Of a stretch of DNA of 64,000 nucleotides, positions 74 through 63,865 are shown one piece after another. The DNA is taken from positions 28,999 through 92,998 of IMG/VR virus record IMGVR_UViG_3300025429_000009; one strand, given 5' to 3'. The position numbers were made by a program, and so were the translations under genes. The first letter of the stretch is position 1. The number at the start of each line of letters is the position of its first letter. The DNA comes from a virus. Taxonomy: Duplodnaviria; Caudoviricetes. Under the pieces are notes generated by a model. The model saw only the letters and a list, made by a program, of their open reading frames with translations. It made no database searches and was not told the origin of the DNA.

Positions 74-3000
74 CGATTACTTAGGACAATCAGGAACGTT
101 TATCTACTCACCCGACATCAGTGTCGCTGTGAGCACGATAGACAACGGCATTATAGATATCTCGAACGACATCATTAATTTTACCTTAGACAGAGAAATC
201 AACCAAGTAAGCACGTTCACTGCTACACTGAATAATCCAGGCAGAAAATACGTACTGCAAAATCAAAATGGTAATCGTTTGATTAGCACGATGGATAGAA
301 TCACAGTGTTCTTAAAGAGAACGAACTGGGTTCAATGCTTTACTGGTTATATTACATACGCACCATTGCTGACGTTACAGCCAGTGCCAGTTACTATTAC
401 TGCTAACTGCACACTTCGCATCCTTCAGGTCACCTATTGGGATGACACACTTATTGCTTACCAGCAGTTGCTGCTAAATGCGACTGACCAGGCAGCAGTT
501 GGATCAGCGGCTACAGTTACAGATGGTGGTGTTGGCCAAGCAGTGGTTAATGTTTTGTATAAGGTTTGTGGATGGAACCCTAACGCCATTCACATTCAAA
601 GCCTTCCTCCTAACTTCATTAGTTTTGCTGCTGAAACATATATTCAACAGTTGTCTAGCGGTGACTTGGATCAAAACGCCATCGCTGAGCTCAGCCAGAT
701 ACTTAGTGTTAAAGGTATCTCTAGCGGTAATAGTGTGCAAACTGGTGGTTATGCATACGGTTCAACAGAAACGCTTAATAATTCTAAAGCACCAACAGGT
801 ACTTCTGTAACTGCATCAAAAGCAGTGCCGTTTATAACTTCTCCTATTGCTGGTGGCAAACAAAATCACCCAGGGCCAAACACATTAAATCCTGTAAACC
901 AAAAACTTATAGAAGAAGACATTTATTATTGCTCAGCCCCATGGTCTTACCTGCAATACCAAATTACCCCTAGCCTTACACCTTCCGGCAGACAAAGCTA
1001 TCAAAAGATACAAGACCAAGCTAAATCATGGCTAGCAGATAACTGGTCAACTGGAAATAATGACGGTCGTTTGCTTGTTGTGTACAACCAAAAGACTGAT
1101 AATGCTGTCGCCGTAAGAGCGACAAGCATCCCACAGGTGCCTAACACATCAGCAAATGGCTATGCAGTTTATGACGACAAAGCAGATTATTTTCAACTGC
1201 ACCCAAGCGTTGTGGCTTACTTAAACGGTACGGTATCAGAGCCATCTAAGTGGAATAGAACAGATGACCCTGGAGCTTCTTACGTAAGCTTCTCGTGGGC
1301 AGACATGAACAAGATCAACACAGCTGGTGTTATACCAAGTCCAAGTACAACGGTGCTCAGTGGTATTGCTGGTGTTGCCAATCCAAATATTGGCGACTCA
1401 TCTGACCCGTTGGTTATTACTGGTGTTCTCCAAACTCTTGTAAGCAACCTGTTGGGGCAAGTAGGTGACAAATACACAGAAAATACTGCGCCAAAACTAG
1501 GTTACACAAGAGATAACCCAGGCAAACCAGGAACGGGAACAGGATCGTTTGACTGCTCGGGTCTTGCATGGTGGGGGTACTCAACGATTGGTATTCATCT
1601 AGGTGGTACCAAACACGCTGGTACTACATGGTCAGAATGCGGGCCAGTAGATGGTAGCCAAGCTGATAAGTATGGTGCATGGACACCAAACACTCAACAA
1701 CCAGCTTTGGGAGACCTTGTTTTCTGGGAAGTAACCGGAGATAGCGGAAGTGCGCCACAGCACGTATCTATTCTCATTACTAATTTTGGTGATCCAGGGC
1801 CACAAGGCACGCATTTTGCTGGTACTCGTGGCGATCCTGATGTTGCTTACTTGATTGAAGCATCTCATGGTGGTTCTAGTAGTGCTGATCAAAATCCATC
1901 GTATGGTGATCCTGTTTATTACAACAGCAATAACCTTGGACCCAACGTTCAGCAAATTAGATGGAGTTCTATCGCCAATGGTAAATGGTTGCCATGGGGG
2001 ATGAGAGTTATTGGATATCGTAGTCCTATTACTTTGCACCCTAGTTGGACCAGTGCACAACTTCAGCAGCTTTCAATAACTTCTTCGTCGTTAGATAACA
2101 TTCAGGCAGTTGGTACTAGCACTGGTACAAACCCATCCACCACTGCACCTGGGCAGAGCAACCCCAACAATCCATCTAATCCAACAGGAACAGCGAGCTC
2201 GAGCACGCTTAATCCCACAGTTGGCACTGCTTCGGGCACTCAACAACAAAGAGTTTCCTCAACGTTTGCTGGTGCATATAGCAACCTTATGCAGCCACCG
2301 CAGTTTGACGTTAGAGCCTCAATGCTAGCTGGTACGCCAAGAGCATTTTTGCTTGACAAACCTGTCATGAATGACATTTCTCAGATCATGGGTGCTGGTT
2401 TGCGTTCATACCAGAGCGCACCAAATGGTGACTTTGTTGCTTGGTTCCCTGATTATTACGGTGTATATGGCACAGACCCTGTTATGGAAATTAGCCCAGT
2501 GGAGATTCTGGATTTCCAGATCTATCATGATGACAACCAGTTGACTACCCACGTCGGTGTTGTAGGTGACACAAACGGTATTGGTTCTCAAGTTAGCTCA
2601 GCTGACTACCTAAACACCAACGGTATCGTTAGCATCCAGGATGGCACCACTGCACAGATGTTGTTTGGTAAGCAAAGCCCCAATAGTAAAGCAAAAGGTA
2701 AAGCCAAAAAGAATGACAAGAATGGTGCTATGAACAACTTATCTGCATTGTCATTCTTGGGTAAGTATGGCATGAGACCTTTGGTCCAAGAGCAGCAGAT
2801 GATTCACAGTACAACTCTTGAATATATGTATGCTCTGTACACATTTATGAACCAATGGGGTAACCAGTTCGCAAGCAATGTTACCTTTACGTTCATGCCG
2901 GAGTTATACCCAGGCATGAGAATCTCAATAACCATGCCAAATGGCACCAACGTCCCAGACCAGTACAACTTCTATGTCACAGCAGTCACACACACCGGAG

Positions 3001-7764: not shown

Positions 7765-10700
7765 TGCCTATCCTGCCCAACACATCTAACCCACTAAAGC
7801 AATACGTAACAGCGGGAAGCCCACCGCCATTGACAGTTGATGGGCTTGTATACAGCAGCATCTATGCAAATACTGGTGTTGTTGACTCGCTTACCAATAC
7901 CAACACTACTGGCTATACAGACCCAAATTTTAATACGCTTAGCCAGTCAAATGCTTCTACCACTTTTGACAAATACCAAACAGGTCAATGGTTCTCGAGC
8001 ACTGATTTTGGTGGGCCAAACAGCGCACCAATTGTTATCACGTACAGCCTTGTAAACACAACGTATTATAATTTAATTAGTTTTGCAGCACTCAACGTAC
8101 CCTGTTTTATTGAATTGCTTGATCAAAACTTGAATGCTTTGCCAGGATCATCAACGTTTATTGTGCCTGGCGGTAGCGACATCTTTACTACGACTGATTG
8201 GTTAAACCTTCAATACAGTGCACCGAGTACGTTGACTGGCGTTACGAGCATTAACCTGCGCATTACTCGCAATAAGACCGTTCAAGTTAATAACCCAATC
8301 TATGGTCTTGCTGACGTAGCTTATTCTGTTGGCCTTAAGGGTTTTAGAATCAAGCTAAACGTCCAAAGCATTACAGACATCCCATCTGCAGTCGTTAGTG
8401 GAACAACAAGCATCGTTACACAAAACAAATGGGGGCTTGTAGAAAGTTATTCTTACCAAAAGAATGCTGTATCTAACATCTTTTCCAATAATTCATCGTA
8501 TTGGAAGAGTGGACCTCAGCCAGTAGCTGATGCTGTTGTTTTCTTCTATGCACAGGTTAGCGACCCCAACACTACAGCAATAAATCGCCTGTATATTGAC
8601 CCTATCTATAGTGGTTGCAAATTTAATATCTACTACACAACTGCATCAACTTCAGGGAATACTATTGATCCAGGAAACTTTACGTGGACTCCTATCAATA
8701 GAGACTTTACCCTTAGGAAGGGTATATACGATATCCCCACCATCAACTGTACGTACCTAAAGTTTGAGTTCACTCAACTCATTCCTGAAGTATATGACTT
8801 GCCGTTTGACTCTATTCAACGAACAATCAATGTTTTCCCGCTGGACGTAGAAAATTTTTATCAGTCTCTTGAAAACAGCATTATAGACGCTAATTCTGTA
8901 AAGTACTCAACACTTACAAGTAAGATGGCTAACCAAACCGGTAATAATGGACTAAACATCTCAACACGTTTTGGTGTTTCTTCTAGCACAATGGCAAATA
9001 AGAACACATGGCCTAGTATCGGTGCACTTAACCAATCACAACTTGGTGCAGCTGTGACACAAGGCTTGAACAGTTCTTCGCAGATTATTGATCCAAGTAA
9101 AAGCTATAAGTTACTTGATCAGAATGGTAACTATAACGGGTCTACTTACACGCAATTCCTTCAAAGAAGATTCCCATACGCTGAGCAACACAGCTATAAC
9201 CAGATCAACATAAACCAAACATGGCACCAAGCATATTTTACTGGCATACGTTATCTTACGTTCTTTTTTGAAAACACTTATGATGACCTGCGCGGTACGC
9301 CGTACAACCTTTTTGCTAAGAACGGAACAAACAGTGGTTTTTCCACACAAGATGTAAATTATGTAGGTCTTAATCTAGATGACACTGCAACAACCCCATG
9401 GTTCTCAACCATTGATTCGTTTAAAAGCTTTAACATAGGTGGTCTTACAACCGACTGGAGAAGCTTCCTCACGCAGGGCAACCCAATTTCGTTAGACAAC
9501 ACTCTAATGAACAACCTCAACTCTGCACAGCTTGCTAGCATGCAGATCTATTCAACACTAACCAAATATGGATCGCTTGGTAAGTCTACGGTATATACAG
9601 TTAGCGGTATATCAGGTACACAATATGGTCTAAAATCAGCACCATATCAATACGGCAACAACATCATGAATTACTATGATGCCAATTTTATACCTGTATC
9701 AGGTTCTCTCAACTGGAAACCTGTAGGATCAACTAATGTTACTAGCACCGCTGTTGCTTGGGTTAGCGGTACGGCCAGCGGCACAGTTAGCGGTATAACC
9801 GTATCCGGTGGATCAAATGCTGCAACGTATAACTTCACTATCCCCACTGTTTATACGCCCAGTGGTTCTACAGCTTGGACTGTTCAGCTTGGATCGCAAG
9901 CTTACGGTACTGTTGGTTACGCTTCATATGCACCAGGTAGCGGTGTAAACTACTACTTCCTTGCGACGTTGCAGTCTTCTGGTATAACAAACGTGTCAAT
10001 GTACACACAATTTATCAATGCAACAACCAGTGGAGTAATTCCAGGGACTACCGTGTCCGGTGGTCTAGTGCAGTTAAACAATACTGTATCGGGTCTGGTT
10101 ACGATCACAGGAACTAACTACACAGTTAGTGGCCTACCCAGCAATACTATTCAAGTTGTTCTTAGCGGTAGTGCCAACAATGTTCCTTATCAGGTATATG
10201 AAGCAGGTGTTTTTCAGTCGCCAACATCAACATGGGTAACACCATCTGACAGAACAAAGATGCGTGTAAGTGGTGCTGTCAGAGTGTTCTTGCCAGGTAC
10301 AAACAAAGGCACATATAGAGCAAGTCTTTATGGAGTTGACACATACGGCAACACCACTGAGATAGCGTATAAGACCTACGGGTCCTTTAACATGCCATTG
10401 AATACGTGGTTCGATATTGAACTACAATCGTACACAACATATGACTACGTATCGTTCTATACACAACTTATCCAGACAAACACATCTGTACAAGAGATAA
10501 TCTACGTTAGTATGATCGCACCGTTCTATCACCCAGTTAGATATGAGTTCGCCACCACTAGCGGTGGTACAGGTGGTTGGTATCCAATCGTCGAAGGTGT
10601 GAACAACCCCAATTACTTCATCTCAACAACATCAGGTCTGACTGCCAGCGGTATCCAAATCCGTATGACAGCACTGGATCCAAATGTTTTTATCTCAGGC

Positions 10701-22147: not shown

Positions 22148-22519
22148 ATGGATAAGTTAGCACAGACCGGTGAAGTAATGTTTGAAAGAAACATTGCTAT
22201 TATTGCGAGTAGAAAGCAAGAAGTACAAGTTTTCAGCGATGAATTCGTGTATGAAGGGTTCGTATGTGGCCTAGACGATGGATGGTTGCAGATATACGGC
22301 CACGAGGAGAACGACAGAGACAACACTGATACACAGTGGCGTTTCCTTCTCATCGGTAAGCACAAGATCTCAGCTGTTGGTCCGACAGGGCGTGGTTTGC
22401 ACGACTATGATGACGTTACTAGAGAATGGATTACCAAGAAGATTCAGATCTTCTCGGATATTTGTGAAAAGTTCCTTGCAGCGAGAGGTATCAAGAGTGA
22501 TAGAAGAGAAAAGCTTTGA
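22148..22519 (+). CDS. Hypothetical protein (possible Sm/SH3-like beta fold)
   Basis: VQVF...YEGFVCGLDDGWLQI...FLLIGKHKISAV. Confidence 0.6.
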   Translation: MDKLAQTGEVMFERNIAIIASRKQEVQVFSDEFVYEGFVCGLDDGWLQIYGHEENDRDNTDTQWRFLLIGKHKISAVGPTGRGLHDYDDVTREWITKKIQIFSDICEKFLAARGIKSDRREKL

Positions 22520-32493: not shown

Positions 32494-33601
32494 AGGTACT
32501 GACGCTATTGACAAGCTCATCGCAGATCTAAACAAGTTCACACCAGAGGGATCAACCAAGCCGTTGGTCCTACGAGGTAACGACATCGAGAAGGTGAACG
32601 CTATCCCTTGCTTCACACCAGCACTAGCTTATTTGCTAGGCATTGGTGGTTGGCCTGAGGGGAAGCTCATCGAGTTCTTTGGTAAGGAGCACTCTGGTAA
32701 GACTTCGTTCGCCATCATGGCACTGAAGGACTGCTACGACTACTACAATGGCGAGAAGATGGTAGCTATCATCGACCTCGAGCACCGCTTTAACCCTGAG
32801 TGGGCAGAGAAGCTTGGTCTGAAGATCGATGAGAACCTCATTGTGGTACAGCCACCAGACGCCGAGACAGGCACTGACATGATGGTTGCCCTCATCAAGA
32901 GCAAGCAGATTGGTGCTATTGTCTGGGACTCCGTTGGTGCAGCAGCTACCAAGCACAGCATGCAGCAGCTCACAGACAAGAACGACAAGATGGGTGGCAA
33001 CGCTGCAGTGATGAAGCGTAACGTCCAGACAGTTGCTCCTTTGGCTAACCTCTACGGTGTTACCTGCTTTTACCTGAATCAGCTCCGTGCTGACATGGAT
33101 GGTTACAACCGTCCTATGACCCCAGGTGGTCACGCAGTCAAGCACGCAATGAGCGTACGTATCTACCTACGCCCAGGAAGTGATAAGTACTTTGACAAGA
33201 TCAATGGCGAGAACACTCAGGTTGGCAATCCTATCGTTGTTAAAACGGTAAAGAATTCCTATGGACCTCCCTTCCGTGAGGGTTGGACTGACTTCTACAG
33301 TCAGCCATGTGCATTCCTGGATCACCCAGGCATTGACACACGTAGAGACCTCGCACGTATGGGTATTCTCCTGGGGGTAGCTAACCGTGCAGGAGCCTGG
33401 TTCACTTGGCGTTACATCAAGGCACAAGGCCGTGACGCTTTCTTTGAGTCGATCTGGAACAGCGGCATGGCAGACGAGTTCGAGGCAGAGATTATTGCTG
33501 CTATCAAGAAGGGCTCAGGTATTACAGAGGTTGAAGGCGATGAGTTCTTTGGCCGACCACTAACAGCAGACACAGATGATCTGCACGACCCGGAGGTATA
33601 A
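32486..33601 (+). CDS. recA: RecA/UvsX recombinase
   Basis: LGIGGWPEG.LIEFFGKEHSGKT, IDLEH, WDSV, NQLR, TPGGHAVKH, KN, AGAWF. Confidence 0.95.
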   Translation: MARGTDAIDKLIADLNKFTPEGSTKPLVLRGNDIEKVNAIPCFTPALAYLLGIGGWPEGKLIEFFGKEHSGKTSFAIMALKDCYDYYNGEKMVAIIDLEHRFNPEWAEKLGLKIDENLIVVQPPDAETGTDMMVALIKSKQIGAIVWDSVGAAATKHSMQQLTDKNDKMGGNAAVMKRNVQTVAPLANLYGVTCFYLNQLRADMDGYNRPMTPGGHAVKHAMSVRIYLRPGSDKYFDKINGENTQVGNPIVVKTVKNSYGPPFREGWTDFYSQPCAFLDHPGIDTRRDLARMGILLGVANRAGAWFTWRYIKAQGRDAFFESIWNSGMADEFEAEIIAAIKKGSGITEVEGDEFFGRPLTADTDDLHDPEV

Positions 33602-57082: not shown

Positions 57083-57216
57083 GATATCTCCTTACTGGAT
57101 AGGTTGAGTGGGCCCGTTGAGATTCAGGTGGAACCCATACCCAAGACCCCGTTTAATTATTAATGGTGTTAGGTCCCTCACCATGCACAAGCTTCAAACC
57201 TTGTGCTGCGTTGTTG

Positions 57217-59370: not shown

Positions 59371-59706
59371 TTATTCCTCCTCATCTTGGCAATCGCAACC
59401 GGGTGCATGCCATGTTTTTTCTGCTAACTTTTCACCGTACAAGTGAACAGATATTGATTGGAGCTCAGTCATAAAGATACCAAGCAATTTCTTACCGATA
59501 TCAGATAGTTCTGAGATGCGCTCACCAACCATGCTAATTAAATCGGGATTGTTAACCTCATCCCAATTAGCACTTGCTTCATCAAGCCAAAAAATAATCT
59601 TGCTGAAGTCTAAAAATAGGTCTTTCATCACACCTAGCGTCTCGCCGTAGCGAATACGATCAGTTGACTCGGTACCTAATGCGGAAAAGAATTCATCCTG
59701 ATCCAT
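59371..59706 (-). CDS. Hypothetical protein
   Basis: AAGGGG RBS; C-terminal H..GCDC. Confidence 0.7.
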   Translation of the reverse strand: MDQDEFFSALGTESTDRIRYGETLGVMKDLFLDFSKIIFWLDEASANWDEVNNPDLISMVGERISELSDIGKKLLGIFMTELQSISVHLYGEKLAEKTWHAPGCDCQDEEE

Positions 59707-59729
59707 TGTTTTCCCCTTATATCTAGTGG

Positions 59730-60660
59730 GTGTACGGGCAGTTGTTACGTCATACCCAGGACGAATAGTTTGGTCTTCCTCAAAACCATTACAAAACGTT
59801 AACCAAAGTGCTGGTTACCCACACCAATACTAAGCAATTGGAAGCTCCCATCTATTCAGTAGGTTTCAGGTTACCTTCATACGCTTCCCCGTATGATGAG
59901 TCCGTGTTGCATCACATCGCGCATATGCTGTCCATGCAGACACAAGAGAGGGGGCAGTTTAAACACATACCCAGGTGCTGAGCGTCTTCACCAGTACACG
60001 CGCTCACTTGCACGATGGTTCCTCTACCTTCCTACCAACAAGATGGATTCTCTCGCTCCTCCGCGTGTGTTCTTTACGGCATCCACCATTTTCCGACATG
60101 AGCTTCCCCTCATGCTGAGATAGCAGTACGTTGCTAGCGGGTGGGTGCTTCGTCCAGCGCCACCATTGGACCGCGCCTATGCACACAACGAAGCATGCAT
60201 AGGCTCACCACGTTTTTAGTCGGTGGCCGTGACTATAAGGGGACAGGTTTAAGGAGAGCCTCCGTTCCTACATGAGCTTCCCCTCATGCTGAGTGTGTTA
60301 ACTTATAATCTCATAGGATCATATTCCGGTACATCATAAGTAACAACAGCTCCCGTACACACAACAAAGCATGTACGGGATCATCGATTAAGTCGATGAG
60401 ACTACCACGTTTTAGTCGGTGGCCGTGACTATAGTGGCCAGTTTTAAGTGTTCTTGGCAACCACTACACAAGCTTCCCCTTGTGCTGAGACTTTAATAGG
60501 TAGTATCTGTCTACCAGTACACAGTCCTATATACTGCAAGTACCATGTAAGCATGCGCCCTCTCTACATCATCGCAATAGGTATCCCTGCTTTTTAGGCG
60601 AGTCGAAAAACGCCGGATAGGGTTTAACGCCACCCTCCACCACGTCACACGAACAACACC
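59730..60660 (-). ncRNA. Array of structured RNA modules (GGGAAG-loop hairpins and H-type pseudoknots)
   Basis: About 1 kb with no credible ORF; four copies of a covarying 23-nt hairpin at 59878, 60097, 60271 and 60467; duplicated 28-29-nt pseudoknot at 60207 and 60404. Confidence 0.65.
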
Positions 60661-60701
60661 AAACAATAAATGCTTGGAGTTAGTTCGTAAGAGCTAAGAG
60701 A

Positions 60702-61019
60702 CTATAAGTCAAGCGCAGTACGGGCTGCCGCAATCATATTCTGATAAGAATCCATAGTGGTAGCATTAATGTTGACTTTATCAAATTGACCTGCCATGAA
60801 CTCAATAGTATCAATAAGTTCTGAGCCGACGCGCTGATAGGACTTAGACTTGAACTTAAAAACACTAGCCTTATCCTTGATATCATCAATCATGTTATCG
60901 AACTCGGTTACCATGTCGAGGAGACGGAGAGCAACCTCCCTCATCCCCTCGACATTGTCAAGCTCGTTGATCTGCTGACGGATGTCATCAGCCATCTTCT
61001 TTGAATCTTTATTAGTCAT
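60702..61019 (-). CDS. Hypothetical protein
   Basis: GAAAGG RBS before MTNKDS. Confidence 0.7.
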   Translation of the reverse strand: MTNKDSKKMADDIRQQINELDNVEGMREVALRLLDMVTEFDNMIDDIKDKASVFKFKSKSYQRVGSELIDTIEFMAGQFDKVNINATTMDSYQNMIAAARTALDL

Positions 61020-61032
61020 TGTATTACCTTTC

Positions 61033-61395
61033 TTACTTACGGTAGTGGTCCTGGTGACCACATGTTTCGGTTGTGCCCTCACAATAAGGGCTGTGGTTTT
61101 GGTGCATGGTAAATGGTTCACCAAGCACCTCAACTGACTCAGCCATGAACATGTCATAAAGCTGATTGAGCTTATCAGTAATGACCTTGACTCCGATTGG
61201 GAAGGCAATCGTAATCTCCTTCATGTCCGCCGGAGTACTGTTGGGATTGAGGAGCGTACGCATGACGTCCTTAAATGGCTCAAACAGCTCGCCAGTTTCT
61301 ACTGCCCAGTCCTTGATCTTCTCAAGGAATACAGCATGTGCGATACGAGCCTCAGCTGCATCGTCAAGAGTTACATCAAGTTCAAAGTTATCCAT
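61033..61395 (-). CDS. Hypothetical protein
   Basis: AAAGGA RBS; C-terminal H..H..YC.....CGH..H. Confidence 0.7.
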   Translation of the reverse strand: MDNFELDVTLDDAAEARIAHAVFLEKIKDWAVETGELFEPFKDVMRTLLNPNSTPADMKEITIAFPIGVKVITDKLNQLYDMFMAESVEVLGEPFTMHQNHSPYCEGTTETCGHQDHYRK

Positions 61396-61481: not shown

Positions 61482-62969
61482 TTAGTTGAACTGACCAAGC
61501 AAAGCCTGGCGAATGTAACCAGCAGGCTTGTTGATAAGCTTGCCACGCTTGAACATGGCAACGGCTTCTTCAACGCTAGGAACCATGATCATGCGGTGCT
61601 TCTTGAGAAGCTTGGCACACATGATAGCTAGCTGGTTGTTGAAGCCGCCGTAGTTGTTGTTGACGCAACCGTCAGAGATCCACACCATATCCTCGTTGAA
61701 TTTACGGTGACGGATACCCCAAGTGAGAGCAGTACCGTCGACGCCGTTACCGCCGCCGCCGATGTGACCGATCTCCTTGACACGCCAGCCACGGTTGGCA
61801 AGGATCCAGGCGTTGGGCTCGTCTTCGCCCACCTCGCTGTACGCAAGAATGAGTGAAGCAGGGCAAGCCTGGATGATATCGTTGAGATCCTGCTCGCTGA
61901 GGCTCATTGAGCCTGAGATGTCAACAATAACAACACCGCCCTTGGTCTTGACCTTGCGCGTAAAGATGCGACGACCTGGGTCAGTCAACATACGCGATGG
62001 GTTACCAAGGCGACGACCGACGTCAGACGAACGCTTCTTACGACGCATGTAGCCCTCGACCTCGACAGTCAATGGCAAGTCGTCAGCGATACGCAGAGGA
62101 CCGAAGCCACTGGCATCGTCAGGGAACTCGAAGAAATCATCGATGTCGTCAGTATCGAGAGGACTATTCTTGTTGTTTAACTGACCACGCTGGAGAGACT
62201 CATCGTCAATCTCACCATAGTTAGCAGCACGGTCGTCTTCGTCCTTGCGCTGCACAGCCTTGATGTCGTCAGGAGCGTAGTTACCGTTGGACAAGTACCC
62301 GACGACGTCATTGGCTGCGTACAACGCATGACGAAAGCCTGCAGGACCCATGACACCGTGACCGTAGTCGATAGGTGTAGTGCTACCTAAACGACGAGGG
62401 TTGTCACTGAAGTTGCTGTGAATGCGCTTGCTGAGCTTGCGCAACACCTTGGACCAGTCAGGGTTGACTGATCGTACACCAGCAGCGAACGAGTCGAAAG
62501 CCTTGGACTCTGCGTTAAGCAGCGTGAACTGCACAGCATCGTCCCACGCTTGTGGCGTGTTGGCAGTCGCAAGTCGTCGACCCTTGGTCTTCTCGGAACC
62601 GTCAACCTCTTCCTCCATGCCACGAGCAACAGCGAACTGCTCGGTCAATGCATTAACACGAGCATGCTCTGCAGCACGCAACAGATTGGGACTTAAGCTG
62701 TTGTTGTACTCCTTGGAGATCTGACCGTAGAACTCAGGGTCCATCGGTGAGATACGCGCACGAACGAGTTGGGTCAGCTGCACACGCTGGGAATGACTGT
62801 CCCCCCGAAGAGGGACAGTCATCACACCAGCGGTGAAGTCAACACCAACACCGAGGTCGCCGTGTGAGTCGACAACGTCCCATGAGATGGGCGTCTCGAC
62901 ATCGTCACGGAAACCGGTAACTACCCCGGGAAGAGGTAGGATTTCGTTGTTGTTGTTGACCTCGGACAT
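61482..62969 (-). CDS. VWA-domain protein (MoxR partner)
   Basis: MIDAS motif VDISGSM, GGGNG.DG, WISDG. Confidence 0.85.
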   Translation of the reverse strand: MSEVNNNNEILPLPGVVTGFRDDVETPISWDVVDSHGDLGVGVDFTAGVMTVPLRGDSHSQRVQLTQLVRARISPMDPEFYGQISKEYNNSLSPNLLRAAEHARVNALTEQFAVARGMEEEVDGSEKTKGRRLATANTPQAWDDAVQFTLLNAESKAFDSFAAGVRSVNPDWSKVLRKLSKRIHSNFSDNPRRLGSTTPIDYGHGVMGPAGFRHALYAANDVVGYLSNGNYAPDDIKAVQRKDEDDRAANYGEIDDESLQRGQLNNKNSPLDTDDIDDFFEFPDDASGFGPLRIADDLPLTVEVEGYMRRKKRSSDVGRRLGNPSRMLTDPGRRIFTRKVKTKGGVVIVDISGSMSLSEQDLNDIIQACPASLILAYSEVGEDEPNAWILANRGWRVKEIGHIGGGGNGVDGTALTWGIRHRKFNEDMVWISDGCVNNNYGGFNNQLAIMCAKLLKKHRMIMVPSVEEAVAMFKRGKLINKPAGYIRQALLGQFN

Positions 62970-63730
62970 TAGAGCGTCACCGCTGGGTCCAGGGTACCGA
63001 CCTGAAGCGCCGAGACGATCGAGTTGGCCAGCTTAACACCGAACACCATGGTAGCTGCACGCATTGGCGTGAAGTTGGGCGAACGACGCAAGGTCTCGAA
63101 GGCGTGGAACGCACGAAGCGAAGCACGACCATCAGCCTTACCAGCCACAACCATAGCAGCAAGCTGCTGGAGTTCTGGTGGCAACGCAGCGACCAAGGCA
63201 GCTGGGTGAGCAGCGTCAATCTTGATGGAAACAGGGAAGCGGTCCTTGAGAGCCTGAGGCAGCTCGTCAGGGTGCTCGATGTTGGACGTCATGATTGCCG
63301 AGAAGCCAGGCAACGGACGGTACATCTCACCGGTGAACGGGTGCATGTACGACGCAGAAGCCTCGCTGTCAAGGAAGGCAAGCAACGTAGCGAATACGTC
63401 ACCGCCTGCCTTGTCGATCTCGTCAACGACAAGACGACCACCCTGGATACCGTTACCATTCCAAGCGCGCAGAGCAGCACCAGGCGTGAACCCGAAACCA
63501 CCCTGCTCGTTAGGCAGGATAGCACCGGACACGTCGGCATTGGTCATGTCCTCGGTGCAGATTAGGCGGAACGCACCGCCTGCAACGTCACCGTGGTGCA
63601 TGGCCGAGTACGTCTTACCGATGCCGGGAGCACCGATAAGAAGCACGCGGTTGATGCCTGCTTCGATGACATCCTCGAAGTCGATCCAGCATTGTGGAAC
63701 GGGGATGCCGAGGTAAGTGGCTTCAGCCAT
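62969..63730 (-). CDS. MoxR/CobS-like AAA+ ATPase
   Basis: GAPGIGKT, VVDEIDKA, MTSN, ALKDRF, SLR. Confidence 0.9.
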   Translation of the reverse strand: MAEATYLGIPVPQCWIDFEDVIEAGINRVLLIGAPGIGKTYSAMHHGDVAGGAFRLICTEDMTNADVSGAILPNEQGGFGFTPGAALRAWNGNGIQGGRLVVDEIDKAGGDVFATLLAFLDSEASASYMHPFTGEMYRPLPGFSAIMTSNIEHPDELPQALKDRFPVSIKIDAAHPAALVAALPPELQQLAAMVVAGKADGRASLRAFHAFETLRRSPNFTPMRAATMVFGVKLANSIVSALQVGTLDPAVTL

Positions 63731-63793
63731 GTTAATCTCCTATGGGTTGTTAACGATGCATAGGTTGCACCGGGACACTGATTTGTGTACCAG

Positions 63794-63865
63794 CACTGCA
63801 TGTGGGACTCGAACCCACGTTTACCACTATATGAGTGGTCGCTCTACCCGTTGAGCTAATGCAGT
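63794..63865 (-). tRNA. Atypical tRNA-like gene with non-canonical anticodon loop (UCAUAUA)
   Basis: Minus strand: ACTGCAT/ATGCAGT acceptor, TAGCTCAACGGGTAGAGC D arm, ACCAC-TCATATA-GTGGT, GTGGG-TTCGAGT-CCCAC T arm. Confidence 0.75.

Follow-up and report, generated by a model that had tools for sequence, protein, structure and literature searches.

Tandem RNA units headed by a predicted compact pseudoknot: an apparently undescribed family of arrays in uncultured phages

The closest functional analogues of the element described here are probably tandem exonuclease-resistant RNAs (xrRNAs) and the processed stable-RNA clusters of phages. The xrRNAs of flaviviruses and plant viruses are compact pseudoknotted folds, often in tandem, that engage their own 5′ end; by stalling a 5′–3′ exonuclease, with no protein involved, they fix where stable non-coding RNAs begin (PMC5760640, PMC8374639). 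Stable-RNA clusters, such as the T4 tRNA region with its species 1 and 2 RNAs and the tRNA/tmRNA clusters of cluster C mycobacteriophages, are gene-free blocks of small structured RNAs on one strand that are co-transcribed and processed, and their order and content vary between relatives. Here we analyse an array of four RNA units, each headed by a putative pseudoknot module of ~50 nucleotides (nt), in a non-coding island of a phage genome fragment. The stretch analysed (the window) covers 64 kb at the right-hand end of a viral record of 92,998 bp from IMG/VR (IMGVR_UViG_3300025429_000009). The xrRNAs, however, belong to eukaryotic RNA viruses, fold as three-way junctions or rings and act against Xrn1. 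The module of this DNA phage is far smaller, with a predicted two-stem pseudoknot and a hairpin; the xrRNA literature that we found describes no phage xrRNA. Like stable-RNA clusters, the array has tRNAs nearby, and in one relative (contig L014) the island ends in a tRNA-like element, but its units are not tRNAs, are 2–4 times longer and carry a common 5′ pseudoknot module, absent from such clusters.

Three other systems resemble the array in part. The antitoxin RNAs of type III toxin–antitoxin systems (ToxI, CptI and TenpI) and the pseudo-ToxI arrays of phages are tandem same-strand repeats of pseudoknotted RNA, cut into units from one precursor, found where phages and bacteria are in conflict and in some cases phage-borne (PMC3401426, PMC5086642). 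They consist of nothing but near-identical repeats of 34–45 nt and adjoin a toxin endoribonuclease gene, whereas the ~50-nt phage module, with freely varying stems, heads different bodies of 170–310 nt. We rejected a ToxIN, CptIN or TenpIN system given the period of 174–219 nt, the different bodies and the flanking open reading frames (ORFs), which have no ToxN-like match in Pfam or PHROG. In CRISPR arrays and RNA anti-CRISPRs (the latter solitary repeat units), too, a repeated hairpin element punctuates a non-coding array, probably marking processing sites. This candidate was also set aside: the module copies of the window are 72–97% identical to each other, with compensatory stem changes, and not identical repeats of 28–37 nt; their spacing of 174–219 nt is conserved across phages; the ‘spacers’ are 150–280 nt long and conserved between phages, as against unique spacers of 30–40 nt; and there are no cas genes and no similarity to known repeats. 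Finally, the PeSL cassettes of T4-type phages, reportedly described by Arbiol et al. in 2010, are promoter-early stem-loop repeats said to mediate modular shuffling. Here again small modules of a phage early region are bounded by a short repeated stem-loop, with shuffling between relatives. In PeSL cassettes the flanked modules are protein-coding ORFans and the repeat includes an early promoter of the sigma-70 type, whereas the modules of the array are non-coding and their repeat is a covarying RNA pseudoknot without a promoter consensus.

The repeated motif has the form CTCA-N, 6-bp stem, GGGAAG, complementary stem. A preliminary description of the window had noted four minus-strand copies within a non-coding island of ~1 kb, and both features were reproduced: the copies lie at 60489–60467, 60293–60271, 60119–60097 and 59900–59878, with spacings of 196, 174 and 219 nt, and the 995 nt at 59707–60701 hold no credible or conserved ORF. 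A degenerate pattern allowing up to 2 mismatches gives exactly 4 matches in the 64 kb (0.00 expected from 100 shuffles), and neither the pattern nor a covariance model finds further copies in the whole 92,998-bp record. The island lies inside a block in which gene direction is minus, from ~54.3 kb to the end of the window, and its GC content is 0.52–0.54, compared with ~0.41 in the flanks. The conserved module is longer than the hairpin noted earlier: to the hairpin stem (H1) it adds a CUC:GGG pseudoknot (stem S1) and a second helix (H2). With scores from the covariance model of the module (R1), the features are:

59707–60701, minus strand: non-coding RNA island, made up of a leader and units A–D, between the minus-strand ORFs 60702–61208 and 59371–59706; relatives have syntenic islands
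60439–60491, minus strand: 5′ module of unit A (29.7 bits, E = 2e-7)
60244–60295, minus strand: 5′ module of unit B, CTCAG-CATGAG-GGGAAG-CTCATG, H2 AGGA...UCCU, then UUAAAC (38.2 bits, E = 1e-10)
60069–60121, minus strand: 5′ module of unit C, with H2 CGG...CCG in place of the AGG...CCU found elsewhere, a covarying change (34.4 bits, E = 3e-9)
59853–59902, minus strand: 5′ module of unit D, CTCAT-CATACG-GGGAAG-CGTATG, H2 AGGU...ACCU (68.7 bits, E = 3e-22)

Comparison with related phages supports each of the three helices. Among 27 unique instances, 162/162 stem cells of H1 pair and all 6 pairs show double-sided changes (41 cells), whereas slid controls reach only 15–53% pairing; H1 pairing is 100% in the 27 and 99% in 79 distinct sequences, with shuffled and slid controls far lower. 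A search for CTCA-N7-GGGAAG that makes no pairing requirement recovers the same instances, so the pairing is not an artefact of selection. The earlier observation that the stem varies while its pairing is kept therefore holds, and across the related phages the stem covaries at 6/6 pairs, far stronger covariation than the window alone displays.

In S1, the 5′ CUC pairs with the first three loop bases, GGG, in 79/79 distinct sequences. The variants CUC:GAG (five distinct units), CCC:GGG, CUU:AGG, UUC:GGA, UUC:GGG and UCC:GGA all keep the pairing, through compensatory or wobble changes, and it is because S1 joins them that both the CUC flank and the ‘loop’ appear invariant. The GGGAAG loop, which is the same in the four window copies, is thus not invariant across the family, in which GAGCAA/GAGCAG, AGGAAG and GGAAAG occur, and is probably not a free loop. 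Loop L1 (A-N, 2 nt) crosses the 6-bp H1 (S2 in pseudoknot terms), L2 is 0 nt and L3 (AAG, 3 nt) crosses the 3-bp S1; such lengths fit classical H-type geometry. On this comparative evidence, the start of the module is a compact H-type pseudoknot in which S1 and S2 interleave in the order a-b-a′-b′, both backed by covariation.

H2 begins one nucleotide after H1 with the form AGGN...NCCU and a loop of 5–16 nt, and is followed by an A-rich stretch of the UUAA type. Although absent from every search pattern, it is 97% paired, has double-sided changes at 3/4 pairs and covaries (AGUG/CACU, CGG/CCG, GGUG/CACC and GAGA/UCUC). In unit A, for example, S1 joins CUC (60489–60487) to GGG (60478–60476), H1 pairs 60484–60479 with 60472–60467, and H2 pairs AGUG (60465–60462) with CACU (60450–60447) ahead of UUAAAAC. 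Conservation has a sharp 5′ edge at CUCA; the preceding 6 nt are unconserved.

The pairs also bear on strand and molecule. U·G is the commonest middle pair of S1 (74/79), one H2 pair is U·G in 15 sequences, and a second pseudoknot in the unit bodies (PK2, below) has G·U in 4/8 sequences. Because such pairs would be A·C mismatches on the opposite strand, the structure is placed on the gene-sense strand, as RNA; the arrays also share the orientation of the flanking genes in every locus read. The evidence points to a fold in RNA from the gene-sense strand and makes an operator, origin or N4-like DNA hairpin promoter less likely. The selection on structure proposed earlier is accordingly supported at the RNA level, on the minus (gene-sense) strand. 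Intrinsic termination was considered for the hairpins and rejected: no T run follows any of the four H1 hairpins, and a terminator scan flags hairpins in the leader and the bodies (HP3, below) instead.

Arrays of 1–6 copies on the same strand, in one non-coding island per genome, occur in dozens of related uncultured phage contigs. Pattern scans found 14 stretches in IMG/VR and 60 in metagenomes, and R1 gave 178 matches from 80 sources; its best 150 contain 79 distinct sequences. All matches in four relatives (79–89% complete, 116–132 kb) fall within one island per genome, at 1–5 copies, and the syntenic gap of contig L005 holds six gene-sense copies, beside a protein of 495 amino acids (aa) that is 52% identical to its counterpart in the window. 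Copy numbers in fragmentary contigs are lower bounds: many metagenome loci (L036, L041, L043, L067, L075, L083 and L088) end in or near the island, with module matches within ~100 nt of the end, and some short metagenome contigs hold little besides island sequence. Such locus ends may reflect assembly breaks at the repeated module. The cultured relatives Rhodococcus phage E3 and Mycobacterium phage Colt have no module. In prokaryote genomes (596 Gb) there are 8 single matches, compared with ~17 expected by chance for 18 fixed bases, and all 8 have low scores and lack H2. The island has no DNA similarity to GenBank phages, and the neighbouring 495-aa protein gave no tblastn match.

Rfam 15 scans, which covered families including GOLLD, ROOL, Y RNA/YrlA, pistol, hatchet, twister, hammerhead, preQ1, 6C and tmRNA, returned one chance microRNA match in the island at E ≤ 5 with permissive filters and nothing inside the islands of five relatives' loci at E ≤ 0.5. 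This agrees with the earlier failure to recognize the motif as a described family. The family is apparently undescribed: we found no equivalent in the literature, although pieces of it may be among the 8,495 unnamed candidate RNAs predicted from IMG/VR (PMC10690425). Comparative analysis thus supports a real and apparently undescribed family of phage RNA arrays.

As the preliminary description suggested for units of ~200 nt, the hairpins head separate units, here of ~170–220 nt. The bodies between modules are different, orthologous structured RNAs with further covarying pseudoknots and hairpins, and exact blocks of 20–30 nt are shared by phages whose neighbouring protein is only ~50% identical. 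The features read in the window are:

60402–60432, minus strand: unit A PK2, stem AGUC/GACU, loop GCCAC pairing with GUGGU beyond an A-rich linker (pair counts)
60381–60399, minus strand: unit A hairpin UCAUCGA-CUUAA-UCGAUGA with a conserved CUUAA loop (by eye; covaries with CGCUAG/CUGGCG in L014)
60351–60380, minus strand: unit A HP3, a long, terminator-like hairpin with conserved apex CAUGCUUUGUUGUGUG, then GCUGUUGUU
60204–60236, minus strand: unit B PK2 (pair counts)
60176–60203, minus strand: unit B HP3 (CCUAUGCA...UGCAUAGG)
60140–60171, minus strand: unit B 3′ pseudoknot, stem GUCCA/UGGAC, loop GGUGG pairing with CCACC after GAA (by eye)
59979–60006, minus strand: unit C hairpin UGAGCG/CGCUCA with conserved 16-nt loop CGUGUACUGGUGAAGA (covaries with UAAGCG/CGCUUA in L014)
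59951–59978, minus strand: unit C CCUGGGUAUG element: a covarying stem of 3 bp around a conserved loop of 10 nt, then CUGCCC beyond an A-rich linker; a pseudoknot is proposed
59736–59763, minus strand: unit D CCUGGGUAUG element, ~20 nt upstream of the ribosome-binding site (RBS) and ATG (59706) of the next gene

PK2, the CUUAA-loop hairpin and HP3 are common to units A and B and to their orthologues (in L005, L014, L009, L017 and L007). In 8 sequences PK2 reaches 98.6% pairing, and 4 of its pairs show double-sided changes; its stem changes from GUC/GAC to AUC/GAU, and its loop–tail pairing from GCCAC:GUGGU to GCUAC:GUAGC and to GCUAUG:CAUAGC. HP3 occurs in six different stem versions around its conserved apex. 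The 3′ pseudoknot of unit B, found in one subtype only, covaries with GAGUCU/AGACUC and UGUGG:CCACA in L007, and the 16-nt-loop hairpin is common to unit C and its orthologues. A-rich linkers are plentiful in the units. A search of the phage record for antisense targets of two conserved loops gave only control-level, same-sense matches.

Unit order is A-B-C-D in the window, C-x-B-A-D-D′ in L005 and C-B-D-v-v plus the tRNA-like element in L014 (v, variant-loop unit). Because order and number differ between phages, the units appear to be autonomous and shufflable, and no ORF can cross the unit junctions consistently.

The 3′ end of the L014 island (2317–2449, plus strand) folds as a tRNA-like element with a 7-bp acceptor stem (GGGUGUG/CACACCC), a U8-A9-type junction, a D-like arm and a canonical T arm (GGUGG-UUCGAAC-CCACC); a long extended arm replaces the anticodon arm. 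Neither ARAGORN nor Rfam calls this element, and the two found no tRNA or tmRNA in any island examined.

Some modules stand before genes. The CCUGGGUAUG element, with stem versions CGU/ACG, GCA/UGU, UGU/ACA, GGU/ACC and AGU/ACU, recurs in relatives (L005 ~9805; L009 ~3866; L012 ~7318; L014 ~1913, ~2066 and ~2290) and could form a GGG:CCC pseudoknot. It often lies 20–30 nt upstream of an RBS and so may be a translational control element. In every island read, the 3′ end (window unit D, L005 unit 6, L009 unit 2 and L012) has the order module, CCUGGGUAUG element, ~20–30 nt, then RBS and ATG. A detached unit in the window has a similar layout:

57100–57212, minus strand: diverged mini-unit between two genes (R1, 9.4 bits only)

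The preliminary description had listed a fifth variant of the hairpin at 57186–57210, just after a stop codon. It is there and, judged by eye, shares the architecture of the whole module, of which it is a diverged homologue that R1 scores at 9.4 bits (E = 1). The mini-unit starts 7 nt past the stop codon and contains CGCA-G, an H1 of CACAAG/CUUGUG with an 8-nt loop, an H2 of AUGGUG/CACCAU, UUAAUAAU and a degenerate CUUGGGUAUG element (57145–57136), followed by the RBS of a DUF3846 gene. From the position of the module before an RBS both here and at island ends, we infer that it also heads mRNA leaders, where there is no room for a promoter between genes. A plus-strand mini-hairpin at 32656–32669 (UGAGGGGAAGCUCA), inside the gene for a UvsX-like recombinase, matches the H1 core only (14.7 bits), has neither the CUCA flank nor H2, and is in all likelihood a chance match.

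We hypothesize that the module acts as a 5′ boundary or cap: separately folded RNAs, together with an mRNA leader, would be cut from one long transcript, and the module would define and protect them. We give this reading a probability of roughly 0.45. The island would be co-transcribed with the flanking small genes on the minus strand by the host RNA polymerase, as one precursor. This precursor would then be cut in the unconserved A-rich linker upstream of each module, or trimmed 5′ to 3′, and the pseudoknot would bury the new 5′ end, thereby setting and shielding the 5′ end of the RNA downstream, whether a non-coding body that differs in each unit or an mRNA leader (last unit and mini-unit). 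The shared module could also serve as a recombination handle by which units are shuffled, duplicated and lost between phages. A cap would account for the sharp 5′ edge of conservation, for the inclusion of the 5′-most bases in the fold and for the use of the module before both bodies and mRNA leaders. It would also account for the modular shuffling and for the lack of consistent promoters: sigma-70 promoter counts before modules equal the shuffled expectation, with no consistent −10.

Few phage-encoded non-coding RNAs are understood, and this family has unusually clean comparative support, with three covarying helices in the module and others in the bodies. We have not found its organization described: one pseudoknot ‘cap’ that heads many structured RNAs and at least one mRNA leader, in units that have been reshuffled from genome to genome. 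Should the cap block RNases or direct them, RNA 5′ ends could be set in bacteria by a compact device that needs no protein, which might also become a tool for stabilizing transcripts; if the bodies act in trans, they would be a new source of regulators or anti-defence RNAs for phages of a lineage with an Hfq-like protein.

Several points weigh against the cap. Transcription, cleavage and 5′ protection are all read from sequence. A −10-like TAAGTT lies 6 nt upstream of CUCA at some junctions (window unit B, L009, L017 and L018), so that some units could have their own promoters. The S1 variants are few (~10 distinct), which makes their support consistent and not overwhelming, and the pairs of S1 and H2 were counted in a model-fitted alignment. 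We identified no nuclease or module-specific binding protein near the island, where the flanking ORFs are ORFans in Pfam and PHROG. The window also yielded neither a phage RNA polymerase nor an enzyme for RNA processing; it belongs to a record that CheckV estimates to be ~62% complete, and a phage RNA polymerase or RNase could lie in the missing part. Moreover, a 5′–3′ exonuclease of the RNase J type is assumed from the actinophage affinity of two proteins only. One is the DNA polymerase III alpha subunit (DnaE), whose closest cultured relatives are Rhodococcus phage E3 and cluster C mycobacteriophages at ~34–35% identity. The other is an Hfq-like protein:

22148–22519, plus strand: Phage_Hfq (PF23874) gene, 123 aa (24.9 bits against a cut-off of 24.2, over nearly the whole profile)

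To our knowledge, actinobacteria are generally held to lack Hfq. The Phage_Hfq family occurs in all five array-bearing genomes and scores much higher in the array-less phages E3 and Colt. We therefore rejected it as a specific partner of the array and treat it as a lineage marker only; the window protein is possibly an RNA chaperone of this phage lineage rather than of the arrays.

A bolder version of the cap, which we consider speculative and rather improbable, makes the module an autonomous RNA device (a phage counterpart of xrRNAs that stalls a host 5′–3′ exonuclease, or a new self-cleaving ribozyme) that would divide a polycistronic transcript into stable small RNAs and protected mRNAs and so release a toolkit of trans-acting decoys or regulators for use with the Hfq-like protein.

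The module might instead be a handle for protein recognition, with the pseudoknot and H2 as the site at which a dedicated phage or host protein binds or cleaves, and the bodies as functional cargo; candidates are an endoribonuclease resembling Cas6 or ToxN, which would excise the units, and an RNA chaperone such as the Hfq-like protein, which would load them. Invariant bases held in a fixed three-dimensional frame while stems vary, as in CRISPR repeat hairpins or coat-protein operators, would suit such a role, as would the abundant A-rich linkers and a Phage_Hfq encoded in every array-bearing genome. However, no gene for an RNase or an RNA-binding protein adjoins any island, the neighbours being ORFans, an AAA_5 ATPase and a protein with a vWA domain, and the presence of Phage_Hfq in the module-less E3 and Colt removes any specific co-occurrence. 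The ‘loop’ bases, furthermore, appear to be paired and not displayed, which qualifies the earlier suggestion of a protein-binding hairpin: the loop is probably not free for a protein, as its GGG pairs with the invariant 5′ CUC. We consider a protein handle unlikely.

That the whole island of 1–1.5 kb is a single giant RNA, in the manner of GOLLD and ROOL, with the modules as architectural repeats (for example, for multimeric assembly), seems to us a distant prospect. The stretch is continuous, gene-free, GC-enriched and dense in pseudoknots, and lies near tRNA genes in a lake phage; but the number (1–6) and order of units vary among close relatives, which a fixed three-dimensional architecture would not tolerate, the mini-unit stands alone, and the Rfam models of GOLLD and ROOL do not match. 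Large phage-associated ornate RNAs are known (bioRxiv 10.1101/2024.12.08.627333).

A self-cleaving ribozyme that cuts at or just 5′ of CUCA, so that the ~50-nt module punctuates the transcript autonomously, has some attraction in the size of the module, its pseudoknotted fold, its ~10–14 near-invariant nucleotides (typical of small ribozyme classes) and its tandem placement at unit boundaries. Relatives also carry type II hammerheads elsewhere in the genome (L005 1005–1066, plus strand, 40.0 bits; L014 8323–8395, plus strand, 35.5 bits; gathering score, 37), several kilobases from the RNA islands of those phages, and twister-sister, pistol and hatchet were found in the genomic company of hammerheads. 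However, no ribozyme model matches; S1 explains most of the invariant bases and leaves few catalytic candidates (the A after CUC, and AAG in L3); and the GAGCAA/GAGCAG loop variants alter L3. We think this very doubtful.

It is more doubtful still that the arrays are purely cis-acting leaders, in which the module and the CCUGGGUAUG element control stability or translation from a 5′ untranslated or intercistronic region and the gene-less units are what remains of cassettes after loss of the ORFs. An RBS always follows directly on the last unit, and the mini-unit lies between two genes, but the gene-less bodies are under strong purifying selection, with covariation, beside a flanking protein that is only ~50% identical, and relics would decay.

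Early promoters of phage N4 combine a variable stem with a conserved loop and flank, and they serve a virion or phage single-subunit RNA polymerase from 5–7-bp stems with 3-nt loops upstream of several early units. Despite this resemblance and the clear shuffling of units at the shared module, hairpins that extrude in single-stranded or supercoiled DNA as N4-like promoters, priming sites, an origin or recombination sites can be set aside as highly improbable, given the G·U-rich helices and strand asymmetry, the pseudoknots with A-rich loops, the RNA-type covariation over whole units, a loop of 6 nt that pairs with its flank, the restriction of the motif to one island rather than to the front of many early genes, and the lack of an RNA polymerase among the annotated large and mid-size ORFs of the 62% complete record.

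Upstream of the units, the island begins with a leader:

60490–60701, minus strand: leader, of which the first ~35 nt (TTAGCTCTTACGAACTAACTCCAAGCATTTA) are kept in the closest relatives

The leader contains a terminator-like hairpin (60677–60659) and a GGTAG...CTACC hairpin directly before unit A. The leaders of L005 (~8473–8523) and L014 (~1264–1314) carry a conserved 16-codon ORF (M-x-VAYYGLSWKRYGSW) right after a Shine–Dalgarno-like run, GAGGAGGAG. We rejected this 16-aa ORF as a conserved small ORF of the island because it is missing from the window leader.

The phage is of the myovirus type, with an annotated baseplate J protein, tail proteins and a large terminase. Its replication genes comprise a DnaC-like loader, DnaB, a primase, SSB, DnaE, the UvsX-like recombinase and a Cas4-type exonuclease. 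Near the island, at 61482–63730, the minus strand of the window encodes an AAA_5 (MoxR/CobS-like) ATPase and then the 495-aa protein; in L012, the island directly follows the gene for this protein. It combines a novel, mainly helical N-terminal domain of ~260 residues with a C-terminal vWA domain, whose MIDAS motif (DxSGS) lies at residues 350–354. All of its 79 homologues are uncharacterized, and none has a Pfam domain.

Cluster C phages encode Ro60 (PMC4201824), and for this reason, together with the tRNA-like element of L014, we considered a Ro60/Y RNA system. It was rejected on several grounds. The AlphaFold2 model of the 495-aa protein (pLDDT 87.7) matches generic vWA domains only and not Ro60 in Foldseek; there is no TROVE match in Pfam at E ≤ 10, and a sequence search of the Protein Data Bank also speaks against it. 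The 5′ ends of the units lie in a local pseudoknot and not in the terminal stem of Y RNA architecture, no YrlA or Y RNA model matches, and the tRNA-like element of L014, unlike YrlA, has its ends at the acceptor stem.

Three tRNAs are the sole Rfam matches in the window at the gathering threshold, and tRNA genes lie near the island. One tRNA is syntenic just upstream of the AAA_5 gene (window 63793–63865, minus strand; L005 5096–5168; L010 10187–10257; L013 11007–11078), and its anticodon is odd and varies by relative: AUA (‘Tyr’), AUU (‘Asn’), UCA (‘SeC’, opal-suppressor-like) and one unassignable loop.

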